Shown here in pieces: positions 1,676 through 7,352 of a DNA stretch of 64,000 nt. The notes under the pieces were generated by a model that saw nothing but the letters and a program-made list of their open reading frames with translations, made no database searches and had not been told where the DNA came from. Position 1 is the first letter of the stretch; each line of letters begins with the position of its first letter. Source of the stretch: an uncultured delta proteobacterium (lineage in GTDB: Bacteria; Desulfobacterota; Binatia; UBA9968); contig CAVUZH010000005.1 in the NCBI GenBank assembly GCA_963745835.1, positions 96,001 to 160,000 of the forward strand. The letters run 5' to 3'. Position numbers and translations under genes: made by a program.

Positions 1676-3715
1676 GTGAAAGCTGGATTGAACTTCATAC
1701 TGGAAAAGCGGGCCAGTCGATCCAAAGCACGGGCGGCAAAGTTCTTCACTCTTCATGGCGAGGTCCAAACTCCGATCTTCATGCCTGTCGGAACCCAGGC
1801 AGCCGTCAAAGGCCAGACTCTCGACAATTTGAAGGCGGCTGGCGCGCGGGTGCTTCTGGTCAATACCTATCACTTGCTGCTTCGCCCGGGGGCTGATGTT
1901 CTGAAGAGCTTCGGCGGCATTCACAGCTTCATGAATTGGCATGGGCCGGTGCTCAGCGACTCCGGCGGTTTTCAGATCTTTTCTTTGCCGCGCTTAAGAG
2001 AGATCAACGAAGAAGGCGCTCGTTTTAAAAGTTACGTCGATGGACAGTCTTATCTCCTGTCGCCTGAATCGAGCATCGAGATGCAGAAAGCGATCGGCAG
2101 CGATATCATGATGGCGCTCGATGTGTGCATCCCTGCGACGGCGCCCTATGCTCAAGCTCAATCCGCGATGGAGATCACCCATGGTTGGGCCCGGCGTTCG
2201 CTGCGCGCCAGAGGCGATTCGGATCAAGCTCTGTTCGGAATCGTTCAGGGCGCCTGTCATGCCGAACTCAGGATCATCAGCGCCGAATTCTCAAGCAGCC
2301 TTCCCTTTGACGGACTGGCCATTGGAGGTTTGGCAGTAGGCGAAACTCATCGCGAGCGCTACGATGTGACGGCGCTGGTCACCGAACGACTGCCGGAGAA
2401 TCTCCCTCGTTATCTCATGGGAGTGGGGACGCCGATCGATATTCTCGAGAGCGTTCACCGCGGCGTCGATATGTTCGATTGTATCATTCCCTCTCAACTG
2501 GCGCGTCGCGGAGTGGCGTTCACGTCGCGAGGCAAGCTGCAGATGCGCCGGTCGGTGCACAAGTTTTCACAAGAACCGCTGGATACTCGGTGCGATTGCA
2601 GGAGCTGCCAACAGCATTCGCGCGGCTACATCCACCATCTCATCAAGTGCGACGAGGTTTTAGGGTGGCATCTTCTAGGCGTTCACAACATGACTTTCTA
2701 TCAGCGCCTGATGAGCGAAATGAGAAAGAGCATCTTGGCCGATGACTTTCTCTCTTATTACGAGACTAAACGATTCGAGTTAACGCGCGGCGACGAAGAC
2801 AATCCCGTAAGCCGCCCGCGAAAAAGCCCCAAGAGATCTCAGCCCACCCGCCTGGGCGATTATGAAATCCACACGTCCGCGCAGGGTTTCTCCAGCATAC
2901 GCCAGATCAGCTCGGGCGAGATCATGCACTCGGTGAATGCTCCGGATGACGAGGCCAATAGACTCTATGTGGAGCAGTCATGTCTTGCCGGCCGGTCACT
3001 GGAGCAGGAGAGCGAGAGAACCGAGCTGGTCATCTGGGATGTCGGCCTCGGCGCTGCGTTCAACGCCATGGCGGTGATTCACTGTTTTGAAAGTAGTTTG
3101 GCTAAGCCAGGCGCGCTGGTTAGGCGATTGCGTCTAGTCAGCTTCGAATGGGATTTCGATCCGCTCCTGCTTGCTCTGAGATACCCGAGCCGCTTTCCCC
3201 ATCTTCGACACGGCGCGCCTTACCATATTCTTGAAAACGGCAAATGGAAACATGATTCGAAACTGCTCCGGTGGGAGCTTCTCAAAGGCGACTTCAGGGA
3301 TTTCATCGAATCGGCGAAAGCTCCCGATTTTATTTTTTACGACCCGTTCTCATATAAGACAGACGACGCGCTTTGGACGTGGCAAATTTTTTCGCGGATG
3401 GTTAAACGTGCCGGGTCGAAATCCACGGAACTCTATACGTACTCAGCTTCGACTGCGGTTCGAGGAGCTCTCTTGGCAGCGGGCTTTTTTGTCGCGCAAG
3501 GCATCGGCATAGGGCCTAAGTCGGATACCACGATCGGTTTTACCAGCGTAAGCGGGTCGCAAGATCATCCGCTCTCTCCTCGACTGCTAGAGCAATCATG
3601 GCTCATGCGTTGGCGCCGAAGCGATGCGAAATTTCCTGCGACCATGGGAGAGCAAGAAAAGTCTCATTTCGAGAGACTCATTGAAACCCATCCGCAGTTT
3701 TCAGGGAAACTGTAG
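1676..3715 (+). CDS. tgt: tRNA-guanine transglycosylase fused to C-terminal MnmC-type SAM-dependent methyltransferase domain
   Basis: N-terminal ~375 aa: TPIFMPVGT, DSGGFQ, LDVC, GGLAVGE, MGVG, DMFDC, Zn site CDCRSC...H. C-terminal ~280 aa: GEIMHS, WDVGLGAAFN, FYDPFS...LWT, TYSASTAVRGALLAAGF resemble the MnmC methyltransferase domain. Confidence 0.92.
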   Translation: MKAGLNFILEKRASRSKARAAKFFTLHGEVQTPIFMPVGTQAAVKGQTLDNLKAAGARVLLVNTYHLLLRPGADVLKSFGGIHSFMNWHGPVLSDSGGFQIFSLPRLREINEEGARFKSYVDGQSYLLSPESSIEMQKAIGSDIMMALDVCIPATAPYAQAQSAMEITHGWARRSLRARGDSDQALFGIVQGACHAELRIISAEFSSSLPFDGLAIGGLAVGETHRERYDVTALVTERLPENLPRYLMGVGTPIDILESVHRGVDMFDCIIPSQLARRGVAFTSRGKLQMRRSVHKFSQEPLDTRCDCRSCQQHSRGYIHHLIKCDEVLGWHLLGVHNMTFYQRLMSEMRKSILADDFLSYYETKRFELTRGDEDNPVSRPRKSPKRSQPTRLGDYEIHTSAQGFSSIRQISSGEIMHSVNAPDDEANRLYVEQSCLAGRSLEQESERTELVIWDVGLGAAFNAMAVIHCFESSLAKPGALVRRLRLVSFEWDFDPLLLALRYPSRFPHLRHGAPYHILENGKWKHDSKLLRWELLKGDFRDFIESAKAPDFIFYDPFSYKTDDALWTWQIFSRMVKRAGSKSTELYTYSASTAVRGALLAAGFFVAQGIGIGPKSDTTIGFTSVSGSQDHPLSPRLLEQSWLMRWRRSDAKFPATMGEQEKSHFERLIETHPQFSGKL

Positions 3716-3835: not shown

Positions 3836-4672
3836 TTATACCGCGATCATCTCGATCCGCTGGAGCTCTTCTTTGGAGAGCGCGAACTGCTCGGCTTGCA
3901 GGTCTTCTCTCATATGTTGTTCGTTCGTGGTTCCGGTCAACGGCAACATGCCAATCTGCATGGCGAACCGGAAGATGATCTGCGCGGCAGTGGCGCCTAA
4001 CCGTGTGGCGATTTGTTGAACTTGCGGAGCAGCGAGAACTTTTCTGTTGGCGGTCAACAGTGAAAAGCCTTGATAGATGATGCCGTGGCTTTGGCAGATC
4101 TCTCTGACGTCTTTATCCCATGCGAGCGCCGCATAGCAGCGGTTCTGCACCACCATCGGTTTATGATCCGCCTGTTCACATAACTCGGTGAGTTGCCCGG
4201 CCGTGATGTTGCTAATGCCGATCATTTTGGTTTTCCCCGATTGATAAAGCGCTTCCATCGCCGACCAGACCTCCCAATCCGCTTCTCCCAAACCCCGCCG
4301 CGAAAAAGGCGCGTGCAAAACGTAGGAGTCCACATAATCGGTGGCCAGGTGAGCCAATGAGCTGGCAAAGGACTGCTGAACCTGTGTGGTGAGATCGGCG
4401 CTGGGATCGTAAGGCGTCCGATGGTCCTGGCCCTCGGCTGGAGTAAACTTGGTCTGAAGAAAGAGGCTGTTCCGCTTAGTGCCCTGCTGCTGCAGCGACT
4501 TCAGCGCTTCACCTACTAGAGCTTCCTGATAATGGATTAATTGATTGGCGGTATCGATGGCTTTGAAGCCGGCTGCTACGGCCATTATCACCAATTCGGA
4601 AGTGGCCTCTTTTTTCCATGCCGTACCATACATAAGAGAGGGCACGGCCACATTATTATAAGCGCGCAACAT
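3836..4672 (-). CDS. Aldo/keto reductase
   Basis: YGTAW, GFKAIDTA...Y, LFLQTK, DSYVLHAP, IGISN AKR motifs. Confidence 0.9.
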   Translation of the reverse strand: MLRAYNNVAVPSLMYGTAWKKEATSELVIMAVAAGFKAIDTANQLIHYQEALVGEALKSLQQQGTKRNSLFLQTKFTPAEGQDHRTPYDPSADLTTQVQQSFASSLAHLATDYVDSYVLHAPFSRRGLGEADWEVWSAMEALYQSGKTKMIGISNITAGQLTELCEQADHKPMVVQNRCYAALAWDKDVREICQSHGIIYQGFSLLTANRKVLAAPQVQQIATRLGATAAQIIFRFAMQIGMLPLTGTTNEQHMREDLQAEQFALSKEELQRIEMIAV

Positions 4673-4811
4673 GATTTTCTCCCTGCCGCGGTTAATCAGT
4701 TTCTACCAAAAGGTGCGCTCGAAATCGACGTGCTGACTCGAAACTCACTTGAATGCCCAGTACCATTTCAACCGCAGAAGAAAACCGTCCTTCGTTGAGG
4801 AGCTAGGCTGG

Positions 4812-5807
4812 TTAACGACGGCCATAGAGTTTGTCGATGAAGCCGCTGCTTCGAAGTTGATCGACGAAGCGCAAGTCGACAAAATCTTCGGCTTTGGCCT
4901 TTGCCGCCTTGGGATCCCATGAGGATTGCACTTCCAGTGTGTTTCTCAGTCCCTCCACGGTCGGGTAGGTATCCTCGACAAAAAGCTGGCTGTATGCCGA
5001 ATAAGCCCCTTCAAGAATGGCGCGACTAGGCCCACGGGTGTATTTGCTCATGATTTTGATGGATTCTTCCTTGTTCATTTTAAAGAAGTGAACCCCCGCT
5101 GCAATCGCCTCGACCATACGCTGGACCGCATTGGGTTGCTCGCGAATCATCTGCCTGCTCGTAACCGTGCAAGTATAAAGAAACGGCACTTTGAGCGCTG
5201 CCATGTCGATGACGACCTTGAGGCCGTTACGTTCTCCTTGGATTTTCTCGGCATCGCTAACGATGGTGAAGTCGGTCTGCCCCGCGATCACCGAAGCGAT
5301 GCGCGCCGGACCGCCGCCGACGGTGATCGCCTTGATTTGATTATAGGGAATGCCAACCTGTTTGAGCGCGAGACGCAGGGCAAAATCCGCCGCGGTTCCC
5401 GGAATATGCACCGCCGCCGTTCTGCCTTTTAACTCCTCCCGTGATTTGATGTTGGTTTTGCCGACGACGTAGTAAGGTAAAGTGTTGACCACCCCATTGA
5501 CGATTGCGATGTCGCCGCCGGCGATTCTGCCGTTAATCGCCGAAGTTCCTACTGCTTCGGTAAAACTCAAATCACCCGCCAAAAGGCTCTGGATGCCCCG
5601 GGTGCTGCCGTCGATGAAGACCAGGTCGATATCCAAGCCGTATTTTTTGAACAGTCCTGCTTCCTTGGCGATCCAGGCCGGCACGGACGAGCTCGGAGAG
5701 TCGGAGATGTAAGCTGACAGCAGCTTGCTCTGCGCCGGCGCGCTTGTTCCAACGATTACTGAAAGACAAAAGAATAAAATCAAGCCGCCAACAGAAGCAA
5801 TTTTCAT
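4812..5807 (-). CDS. ABC transporter substrate-binding protein (NMT1/SsuA/TauA-like)
   Basis: Signal peptide; WIAKEAGLFKKYGLD, ELKGRTAAV..PG and FVDLRF pattern of class II binding proteins. Confidence 0.88.
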   Translation of the reverse strand: MKIASVGGLILFFCLSVIVGTSAPAQSKLLSAYISDSPSSSVPAWIAKEAGLFKKYGLDIDLVFIDGSTRGIQSLLAGDLSFTEAVGTSAINGRIAGGDIAIVNGVVNTLPYYVVGKTNIKSREELKGRTAAVHIPGTAADFALRLALKQVGIPYNQIKAITVGGGPARIASVIAGQTDFTIVSDAEKIQGERNGLKVVIDMAALKVPFLYTCTVTSRQMIREQPNAVQRMVEAIAAGVHFFKMNKEESIKIMSKYTRGPSRAILEGAYSAYSQLFVEDTYPTVEGLRNTLEVQSSWDPKAAKAKAEDFVDLRFVDQLRSSGFIDKLYGRR

Positions 5808-6002
5808 AGTGTCCTCAACTGCAAATGATGACTAAGCCCGATCGTCAACGATCTTTATTGCGCATTCGCCAGGGCCCGTCCAATGAGACGTTCCTTTAAG
5901 CCACACAATTAGTGAGGAGCATGAATAGCTGCTGCAATATATCAAGCAGGCATACCATCATGCTTGGTCTTCGAGCGGCGGTCATTTGTCGTGCAACTCT
6001 AC

Positions 6003-7091
6003 TCAGCCAGCGTGTCTGGATAGAGCGGGCATAACCTGGCCGGCAAGGAGTTTGATAGATTCCTCGTAATCCGGGCCGAGCTTGGCAAAAGCAACCTGAT
6101 CGTAACCAAGCCTTCCCGCGGCTCCGACCAACTCGATAATCTGATCCCTGACTTCTTCCGGCCTGCCCGCAGCGTAATAGGTCTTGACCATATGTTCGGT
6201 GACCAGCTCAGAAGCTTCCTCCACGGTGGCTCCCGTTTCGAACGCTCTTTTAAGGCTAAGTACTTGCTCCCGGGTCACGCCCATTTTGCCATACTCATCG
6301 GCGGTGAAACCCAAAGCCTCCCATTGTAGAATTGAATGAGCCACCTGGCGCTTGGGAAACTCGATCGCTTTAACCCGGTTGCTGGAGATCGACACGTTAA
6401 GTTCACATACTTTGCGCAATCGTTTTGCGGGGTCGATTTCCTGTGCGGCATGATCCGCGGCGGCGAGCATGCCGGGGAGCCGTCCAGCCTTGAGCATCGG
6501 AATATACGTTCCCGAGCTGATTAATCCGTCCATGATGCGGCCGCACATTCGCAGCGCCTGCGGGCCATTGCCGCCGCCGTAAAACTTAAAACGCGATCGC
6601 GGTTTGAAAGCGAGGCGAAACCTTCCGCTCGGATTAAGATGGTAAAATTCTTGAAGGAATGGGTAGTCAGCATAGTTCAACTCCTGACCGCTCAATGCCT
6701 GCCGCAGCAGCTGAACTGTTTCGCTGACCATGGCAACAGGCCGAAGAGGCTGAACGTGCTGGGGGGACTGTCCGAGGTCGCCCCTGGCTATCCCCACGCT
6801 TATCTCCCGATCTTCGCACAGCTCGGAAAGAGCGCCGAGCGAGTCGGCGACATCCAAGGGGTTATGAAAGTACGGCACCATGATCGCGGTGCCGAGGCGG
6901 ATCGGTACCTGTGAGGCAATCGCCGTGAGCACGACAATCTGACCGCGGTAACGAATATTATCGTTGACCCAGATCTGCTGAAAACCGTTGTCGGCGGCGA
7001 GATGAGCCAGTCGAACCAAATCTCGAACCGTATATTGATTAGCTAGATGAGTGACAAATTGCAGCCCGAGCTCTCCATTGAAAATTGCCAT
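6003..7091 (-). CDS. LLM-class (luciferase-like) flavin/F420-dependent oxidoreductase
   Basis: GFQQIWVND, IRLGTAI, SVGIARG, GPQALRMCGRIMDG, AGRPEEV motifs; start placed at ATG 7091 after a GGAG element. Confidence 0.85.
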   Translation of the reverse strand: MAIFNGELGLQFVTHLANQYTVRDLVRLAHLAADNGFQQIWVNDNIRYRGQIVVLTAIASQVPIRLGTAIMVPYFHNPLDVADSLGALSELCEDREISVGIARGDLGQSPQHVQPLRPVAMVSETVQLLRQALSGQELNYADYPFLQEFYHLNPSGRFRLAFKPRSRFKFYGGGNGPQALRMCGRIMDGLISSGTYIPMLKAGRLPGMLAAADHAAQEIDPAKRLRKVCELNVSISSNRVKAIEFPKRQVAHSILQWEALGFTADEYGKMGVTREQVLSLKRAFETGATVEEASELVTEHMVKTYYAAGRPEEVRDQIIELVGAAGRLGYDQVAFAKLGPDYEESIKLLAGQVMPALSRHAG

Positions 7092-7352
7092 GTCTCTACT
7101 CCGCCGTTTACTGCATCTATGACATGCTCGTGCTGTGTGCGGCAAGCAGATTCAGAATGACCAAGTTTGCATAAAATTGTGATCGAGCAAACTCGCAGAG
7201 TTTTTCGGGTCGAGGTCTGAAAAGGCAGGACCGGATTTACCCGACCGATCGCCTTACGGTGCGTGAGATATGAAAGGTAAGAGCGCTACACTCTATCCGA
7301 AACCAGAGCATTCATCCGCTCTCAAACCGGTGAACCGGCTAGGGTTTAGCGC

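Follow-up and report, generated by a model that had tools for sequence, protein, structure and literature searches.

A second tRNA-guanine transglycosylase joined to an MnmC2-like methyltransferase: a possible N-methyl-preQ1 branch beside queuosine

The window analysed here is a stretch of 64,000 nucleotides from an uncultured member of the Binatia (assembly GCA_963745835.1, contig CAVUZH010000005.1, positions 96,001 to 160,000 of the forward strand), and the subject is one gene near its start that joins a bacterial-type tRNA-guanine transglycosylase (Tgt) to a methyltransferase related to MnmC2. The fused Tgt is a paralog, an extra copy that the genome carries next to its canonical Tgt, and its two domains hardly ever occur apart. 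The explanation I lean towards, without calling it established, is that the Tgt domain inserts preQ1 (7-aminomethyl-7-deazaguanine) and that the tethered methyltransferase would then N-methylate this base, forming a branch beside queuosine. The biosynthetic route to queuosine is taken to be linear, solved and served by one Tgt, and a widespread second Tgt that is found only welded to an amine methyltransferase points to an overlooked 7-deazaguanine branch in RNA.

The genome that holds the window (7.28 Mb in 25 contigs, with an even G+C content of 52.5-55.6%) encodes a canonical Tgt of 365 aa that is 47% identical to the fused Tgt, in a queA-tgt-yajC-secD operon (G000:C16). The canonical Tgt scored 511 bits and QueA 424 bits against their profiles. 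Since queF and queG are present in addition to this operon, ordinary queuosine is probably still made; queH gave no match in this genome. The queA-tgt context that marks the queuosine-pathway Tgt of the genome belongs to the canonical copy and is lacking from the fused one. An earlier reading of the window from its letters alone (hereafter the sequence-only reading) had proposed that the fusion gives N-methyl-preQ1 rather than queuosine, and had named a second tgt, queA, queG/queH, mnmE and mnmG as genes to profile. That profiling recovered the canonical queA-tgt pair together with queF, queG, mnmE and mnmG, and because a second tgt exists, "rather than queuosine" has to give way to "possibly beside queuosine". 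A further Tgt locus was found in 39 of the 40 other fusion genomes (38 of 39 without the unpublished genome G003), the sole genome with only the fused Tgt being a Riflebacteria metagenome-assembled genome, and 14 of the 16 fusion genomes in the window's class have a canonical Tgt. As a side observation, the canonical tgt at G032:C14:24338-25380 lies in four overlapping pieces with TGA, TAG and TAA stops, and is either a decaying gene or the product of a poor assembly.

The fusion is real and not an assembly artefact. Among the database matches listed, which were 66-96% identical, all 120 clusters carried both Pfam domains, and in 78 of the best 80 genome loci the Tgt part lay directly upstream of the methyltransferase in the same frame, while one of the remaining two ended at a contig edge and the other shifted frame within Tgt. 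Uninterrupted open reading frames (ORFs) of more than 640 aa numbered 73 across the 80 genome loci and the window, the window's own ORF included. The fusion is also near-obligate, as seen from either domain: among 80 metagenome loci traced from the methyltransferase, 72 were fused in frame without a stop, one was frame-shifted, six were cut by contig ends and one stood alone. On the Tgt side, both domains were present in 114 of the 120 proteins nearest to the Tgt domain, the other six entered the methyltransferase and then stopped or lost the frame past the linker, and no stand-alone Tgt of the fused type was found among these 120. The sequence-only reading had offered a mere convenience fusion of two wobble enzymes as its alternative; paralogy together with near-obligate fusion makes that alternative less likely in its pure form, although preQ1 methylation is not thereby shown. 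An intact second Tgt that is kept next to the canonical one in four phyla and is always tied to an amine N-methyltransferase would be hard to explain if the two domains served unrelated tRNAs, and is easily explained if the methyltransferase acts on the base that the Tgt has inserted.

Stand-alone forms of the methyltransferase were followed separately. Many of the 68 short representatives that seemed to stand alone were rejected as fragments or mis-called starts of fusions, and true stand-alone members of the fused methyltransferase clade are rare: they comprise locus L218 and perhaps L164, in which 1044 bases upstream contain no Tgt. The stand-alone gene of L218 (4968-5846, forward strand) has an unannotated ORF of 381 aa just upstream, and no tgt lies within 5 kb upstream of it. 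A separate clade made up purely of stand-alone methyltransferase relatives also exists, and its members accompany the fusion in Oligoflexia genomes, with two copies in G023 and one in G039. In two Oligoflexia genomes a stand-alone methyltransferase relative is divergent beside leuS, at 4616-5437 (-)/5486-7828 (+) of L222 and at about 4596-5429 (-)/4745-7870 (+) of L223, an adjacency that may be plain synteny. Two class-mates of the window genome hold the fusion and a separate methyltransferase-only ORF (G253:C498:4321-5196 and G235:C310:8195-8959), at 45% and 39% identity, respectively.

The gene and its parts are laid out as follows, with residues of the Zymomonas mobilis Tgt (Zm) given for comparison and SAM standing for S-adenosylmethionine:

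1676-3715, forward strand: Tgt–methyltransferase fusion gene, 679 aa plus stop, GTG start, N-terminus matching the homologue consensus
1724-2767, forward strand: Tgt domain, residues 17-364 (Pfam TGT, E 4e-138; TIGR00430, 436 bits)
1958-1969, forward strand: DSGG, residues 95-98; D95 corresponds to Zm Asp102 and is invariant in 38 fusion sequences
2117-2128, forward strand: LDVC, residues 148-151; D149 corresponds to Zm Asp156 and C151 to Zm Cys158
2324-2344, forward strand: GGLAVGE, the preQ1-pocket loop, residues 217-223 (Zm 229-235)
2468-2512, forward strand: DMFDC (residues 265-269) followed by IIPSQLARRG; D268 corresponds to the nucleophile, Zm Asp280
2591-2692, forward strand: zinc site C306, C308, C311 and H337, all invariant in 38 fusion sequences
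2786-2860, forward strand: basic disordered linker, residues 371-395 (25 residues), from the AlphaFold2 predicted local distance difference test (pLDDT)
2861-3541, forward strand: MnmC2/DUF752-like class I SAM N-methyltransferase domain, residues 396-622 (PF05430, 54 bits; relative of 3VYW)
3035-3064, forward strand: SAM motif I, WDVGLGAAFN, with D, G, G and N invariant (motif definition as in PMC3527978)
3338-3352, forward strand: motif IV, YDPFS, with D556 invariant and equivalent to the catalytic Asp of E. coli MnmC (D178) and Aquifex (D193)
3542-3712, forward strand: family-specific helical C-terminal extension, closing with the HPQF motif at 3689-3700

Pfam and NCBIfam domain matches confirmed the 679-aa ORF at 1676-3715 that the sequence-only reading had picked out, and its assignment of the two halves to a bacterial Tgt and an MnmC-like methyltransferase was right: profile searches matched TGT and Methyltransf_30 (PF05430), and the motifs it had named were found at residues 95-98 (DSGG), 148-151 (LDVC), 217-223 (GGLAVGE) and 306-311 plus H337 (zinc site). 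The score of 436 bits against TIGR00430, the Tgt equivalog profile, lies above the cut-off of 306.75, and the domain aligns with solved bacterial Tgt chains at E values of 1e-104 to 1e-102. Methyltransf_30 covers residues 521-621 of the fusion protein (E 1.8e-14), with 54.2 bits against a gathering score of 22. NF033855, the equivalog profile for the MnmC2 domain, gives 64 bits for the fusion and 67 for the domain alone, below its cut-off of 136, and 63-85 bits for six stand-alone methyltransferase relatives. In an AlphaFold2 model built on a 38-sequence alignment both domains fold well, with a mean pLDDT of 90.6, and the linker drops below 50 at residues 381-388 (mean of 46 over residues 381-390).

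Judged by its residues, the fused Tgt looks catalytically active. D95, D149, Q191, the GGLAVGE loop, D268 and the zinc ligands are invariant across the 38 fusion sequences. The equivalents of Asp156, Cys158, Leu231, Val233 and Glu235, which I take to be the preQ1-type base-pocket residues, are present together with the CxCxxC...H zinc site, so that the preQ1-type Cys (Zm Cys158) and Val (Zm Val233) are both retained. T40, K45, N63, Q100 and D149, presumably the residues of the uracil-33 and guanine/preQ1 pockets, are likewise unaltered. Asp280 is described as the nucleophile of Tgt, and Asp102 as having a catalytic role (PMC6165067).

Two sets of Tgt domains drawn from shared genomes, 73 of them fused and 21 canonical, were aligned, and fusion-specific positions were those conserved to at least 85% within each set but different between the two. 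This yielded 17 positions, four of which sit in the helix right after the nucleophile (Zm V282 to I, R286 to Q, R289 to Q and N290 to R), where Val282, Arg286 and Arg289 are assigned to a pocket for ribose-34 and phosphate-35 (PMC5395182, PMC6165067). Val, Arg and Arg occupy these three positions in 100% of the 21 canonical copies, Arg is found at both R286 and R289 in all three kinds of solved bacterial chain listed, and the fused Tgt departs from this canonical form of the helix. The window copy has I270, Q274 and R278 at Zm V282, R286 and N290; at Zm R289 it has Arg (R277), where 90% of the 73 fused sequences have Gln. A fifth switch, Zm E157 to Q, shows Gln in 97% of the fused copies, Glu in the canonical ones and V150 in the window; it carries less weight, since His occupies this position in the T. 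maritima chain. The window copy departs from its own family at V150 (2120-2122) and at R277 (2504-2506).

As far as its motifs tell, no hallmark of N-methyltransferase catalysis is missing from the methyltransferase domain. It keeps motif I together with the Glu of motif II (SFE), the Asp of motif III (GDF) and a motif IV with DPF as a variant of the catalytic DxF, where the SAM motifs and the catalytic DxF Asp follow the definitions given in PMC3527978 and PMC3648344. Its closest solved relative is the MnmC2/DUF752 protein of Aquifex (3VYW, E 3.5e-10), followed by MnmC of E. coli and Y. pestis, and a trait peculiar to the fused methyltransferase subfamily is its helical C-terminal extension, which closes with HPQF.

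In a tree of the 73 fused and 21 canonical domains, the fused Tgt domains fell together in a single clade with a support of 0.91 and a stem length of 0.88 substitutions per site, which on sequence grounds makes the fused Tgt a distinct conserved lineage. Fused domains are 65-72% identical between the window genome and genomes of Verrucomicrobiota, Bdellovibrionota and Riflebacteria, as against 45-54% for the canonical copies in the same genome comparison. The fusion was found in 16 of 121 sampled genomes of the window's class (16 of 120 without the unpublished G273), in one of six other members of its family and in one of 151 genomes of a phylum-wide sample; its holders are Binatia, Opitutales and other Verrucomicrobiota, Riflebacteria and Bdellovibrionota. 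Patchy spread combined with the higher identity of the fused domains fits the horizontal spread of one module, a tighter constraint, or both.

From this anatomy, paralogy, conservation pattern and distribution I infer both catalytic steps, the substrate and the product. In the first step, the Tgt-paralog domain would exchange guanine for preQ1, most likely at G34 of tRNA, with the altered ribose-34/phosphate-35 pocket leaving room for another subset or another site. In the second step, the MnmC2-like domain, carried on a flexible basic linker, would methylate the new aminomethyl nitrogen with SAM, a reaction of the kind that MnmC2 carries out on nm5(s2)U34, and the tether would let this methylation outcompete QueA for the preQ1 intermediate. 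As the outcome, some of the RNA would carry N-methyl-preQ1, and queuosine would still be made by canonical Tgt, QueA and QueG. The chemical analogy on which the sequence-only reading had built, namely the pairing of an MnmC2-type N-methyltransferase with an enzyme for placing an aminomethyl base at position 34, is sound. Put more broadly, and more guardedly, the fusion might be a horizontally mobile, self-sufficient module that writes N-methyl-preQ1 (7-methylaminomethyl-7-deazaguanosine) parallel to queuosine, perhaps on other G34 tRNAs or at another RNA site.

The main rival, a serious possibility though I hold it to be the less probable one, is that the protein joins two independent wobble enzymes. 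Its C-terminus would be the cell's MnmC2, acting on the nm5(s2)U34 (5-aminomethyluridine or its 2-thio form) that MnmEG makes by the ammonium route, its N-terminus would be a second preQ1-inserting Tgt for the ordinary GUN tRNAs (those with anticodons of that form), and fusion would only co-regulate or co-localise the two. The make-up of the fusion genomes speaks for this rival and weighs against preQ1 methylation. In the window genome the fusion is the only PF05430 protein, no MnmC1 reaches the cut-off, MnmM and MnmL were not found, and mnmE, mnmG and mnmA are present. Most fusion genomes have the same gene pattern: of the 39 others, 31 gave no PF05430 match besides the fusion, none gave MnmM and seven gave MnmL, and mnmG is above the cut-off in 36. 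Given mnmG, the ammonium route to nm5s2U and the fused domain would add up to a complete known pathway, as in Aquifex, whose MnmC2, the best solved relative, is reported to work without MnmC1 (PMC3527978). With the fusion as the only MnmC2/MnmM-type candidate beside mnmE, mnmG and mnmA, the nm5s2U explanation stays alive, and the authors of bioRxiv 10.1101/2023.12.21.572861 indeed class the Tgt fusion as an MnmC2 fusion.

Further results count against preQ1 methylation in the same way. No residue that separates an nm5U pocket from a preQ1 pocket was found in the sequence, and the neighbourhoods of the 80 related loci showed no linkage to que genes. The predicted template modelling score of the whole fusion is only 0.59, so the mutual arrangement of the domains is not fixed in the model and no set orientation is predicted. 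Of 39 fusion genomes, 33 have QueF above the cut-off, three gave no match for it and another three only matches below the threshold; QueA is present in five of these six QueF-poor genomes, and the sixth, G024, was not searched. The 48 tRNA genes of the window genome include one each for tRNA-Asn, Asp, His and Tyr, with no spare GUN tRNA among them, so two Tgts would compete for the same four tRNAs unless their targets differ. As an observation apart, three Riflebacteria genomes without a QueF match (G024:C50, G030:C47 and G038:C37) each carry, besides the fusion, two full-length mnmG genes separated by a few kb; both genomes that were tested for QueA, G030 and G038, have it.

Two independent wobble enzymes give no reason why 39 of 40 genomes retain a dedicated, intact Tgt paralog in addition to a canonical Tgt, nor do they account for both parts being almost never apart. 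Tgt and MnmC2 act on different tRNAs, and tethering them would consequently bring no kinetic gain. Of 20 class-mates without the fusion, 19 had no PF05430 match at all, which means that the fusion does not displace a stand-alone MnmC2 and nothing has been replaced; the methyltransferase and the extra Tgt are present or absent as a pair. The domain also reaches just half of the curated MnmC2 cut-off. Finally, G040 (Pseudobdellovibrionaceae) has the fusion and in addition a separate, more distant MnmC2-like gene of 235 aa (L224, G040:C24, 1350-2057, reverse strand), which is divergent beside an MnmL/YtqA radical-SAM gene (2081-3037, forward strand; TIGR01212, 249 bits). The pairing of MnmC2 with MnmL/YtqA is linked to mnm5s2U synthesis in bioRxiv 10.1101/2023.12.21.572861.

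It is rather unlikely that the two steps operate on a different target (another G34 tRNA, another RNA or DNA), or that the methyltransferase acts on some other amine, for instance the secondary one in epoxyqueuosine or queuosine. The window genome does offer eleven more tRNAs with G34 but no surplus GUN tRNA, and the patchy, transfer-like distribution would suit an accessory module. Set against this, the residues presumed to form the uracil-33 and guanine/preQ1 pockets are unchanged, the score lies above the curated cut-off for Tgt(34) equivalogs, and no feature marks the fusion as a DNA enzyme. Very improbable is that the Tgt domain has lost catalysis and now serves only to bind the anticodon loop and so bring in the methyltransferase, for which eukaryotic QTRT2, a non-catalytic Tgt paralog with solved chains among the structure matches listed, would be the precedent: the catalytic, base-pocket and zinc residues are all invariant in 38 fusion sequences from several phyla, which is unexpected for a pure binder.

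Comparison with known systems places both halves within familiar families. The bacterial Tgts (Z. mobilis, E. coli type and T. maritima) have in common with the fused domain the triosephosphate isomerase (TIM) barrel, the equivalents of Asp102, Asp156 and Asp280, GGLAVGE, Cys158, Val233 and the zinc site. In contrast to them, the fused Tgt lies outside the queA-tgt operon, forms its own clade, always has a C-terminal methyltransferase attached, and has other residues at Zm V282, R286 and N290, joined in most of the family by R289 and E157. The stand-alone nm5U34 methyltransferase MnmC2 of Aquifex aeolicus (3VYW) shares motif I, the SAM-ribose Glu and the catalytic Asp of DxF with the fused domain, which differs from it by the HPQF extension, the Tgt partner and a score of half the curated cut-off. 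In E. coli MnmC, an MnmC2-type domain is likewise joined to the enzyme that supplies its aminomethyl substrate, which sets a precedent for uniting successive reactions at a single wobble base in one protein (PMC3648344). There, however, the partner is an oxidase dependent on flavin adenine dinucleotide instead of a transglycosylase and the domain order is reversed, and whereas the linker of the Tgt fusion is predicted to be flexible, the E. coli interface is described as rigid, with 1578 square angstroms (PMC3648344).

A chemical parallel comes from phages, whose DNA carries N-methyl-preQ1 as mdPreQ1 after DpdA2 has inserted preQ1 and DpdM has methylated it (PMC10516641). DpdA2 and DpdM thus follow the two-step chemistry that is proposed here, insertion by a Tgt-family enzyme and then methylation of the amine, but as separate proteins with DNA as the substrate, and DpdM is described as a metal-binding DUF3109 protein with a CxxxCxxCC motif and not as a class I methyltransferase (PMC10516641). 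DUF3109 has no match in the fusion protein, where Pfam finds only TGT and Methyltransf_30. Kinship between the fused methyltransferase and DpdM was rejected because DpdM belongs to DUF3109; by analogy, the fusion may work like DpdM without being a member of its family.

A literature search returned no paper that names N-methyl-preQ1 in RNA, which does not prove its absence from print. Fusions of TGT (COG0343/PF01702) with MnmC2 are named among four additional MnmC2 fusion types in bioRxiv 10.1101/2023.12.21.572861; the text of that preprint devotes one sentence to them, with no function or comparative analysis, and refers to a list in its Supplemental data S3. Public records name the fusion proteins plain "Tgt". 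The present analysis adds that the fused Tgt is a paralog, that its linkage to the methyltransferase is near-obligate, that its pocket helix carries substitutions, that no MnmC2 is displaced and that other MnmC2-like genes can co-occur with the fusion, and the fusion is, by its sequence relationships, a variant of known families with possibly a new function. If N-methyl-preQ1 is indeed the product, a new natural ribonucleoside would sit at the wobble position or close to it and would converge with the mdPreQ1 of phage DNA, so that cellular RNA would gain a branch known so far only from there. If the domain is merely an MnmC2, the annotation is still corrected, as these proteins are neither housekeeping Tgts nor curated MnmC2 equivalogs.

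The gene upstream of the fusion, at 3-1538, encodes release factor 3 (RF3/prfC, PF16658). The sequence-only reading had pointed to this adjacency, which holds at the window locus and is not kept in the 80 related loci. Clustering all ORFs of those 80 loci gave no conserved neighbours, the commonest real neighbour being an unannotated GTPase-like ORF in nine of them. Within the window no Rfam family was matched, hence no preQ1 riboswitch, and there is no tRNA gene. Downstream of the fusion, at 3836-7145 on the reverse strand, lie genes for an aldo/keto reductase, an NMT1/THI5-like binding protein and a luciferase-like monooxygenase, which are unrelated to it.

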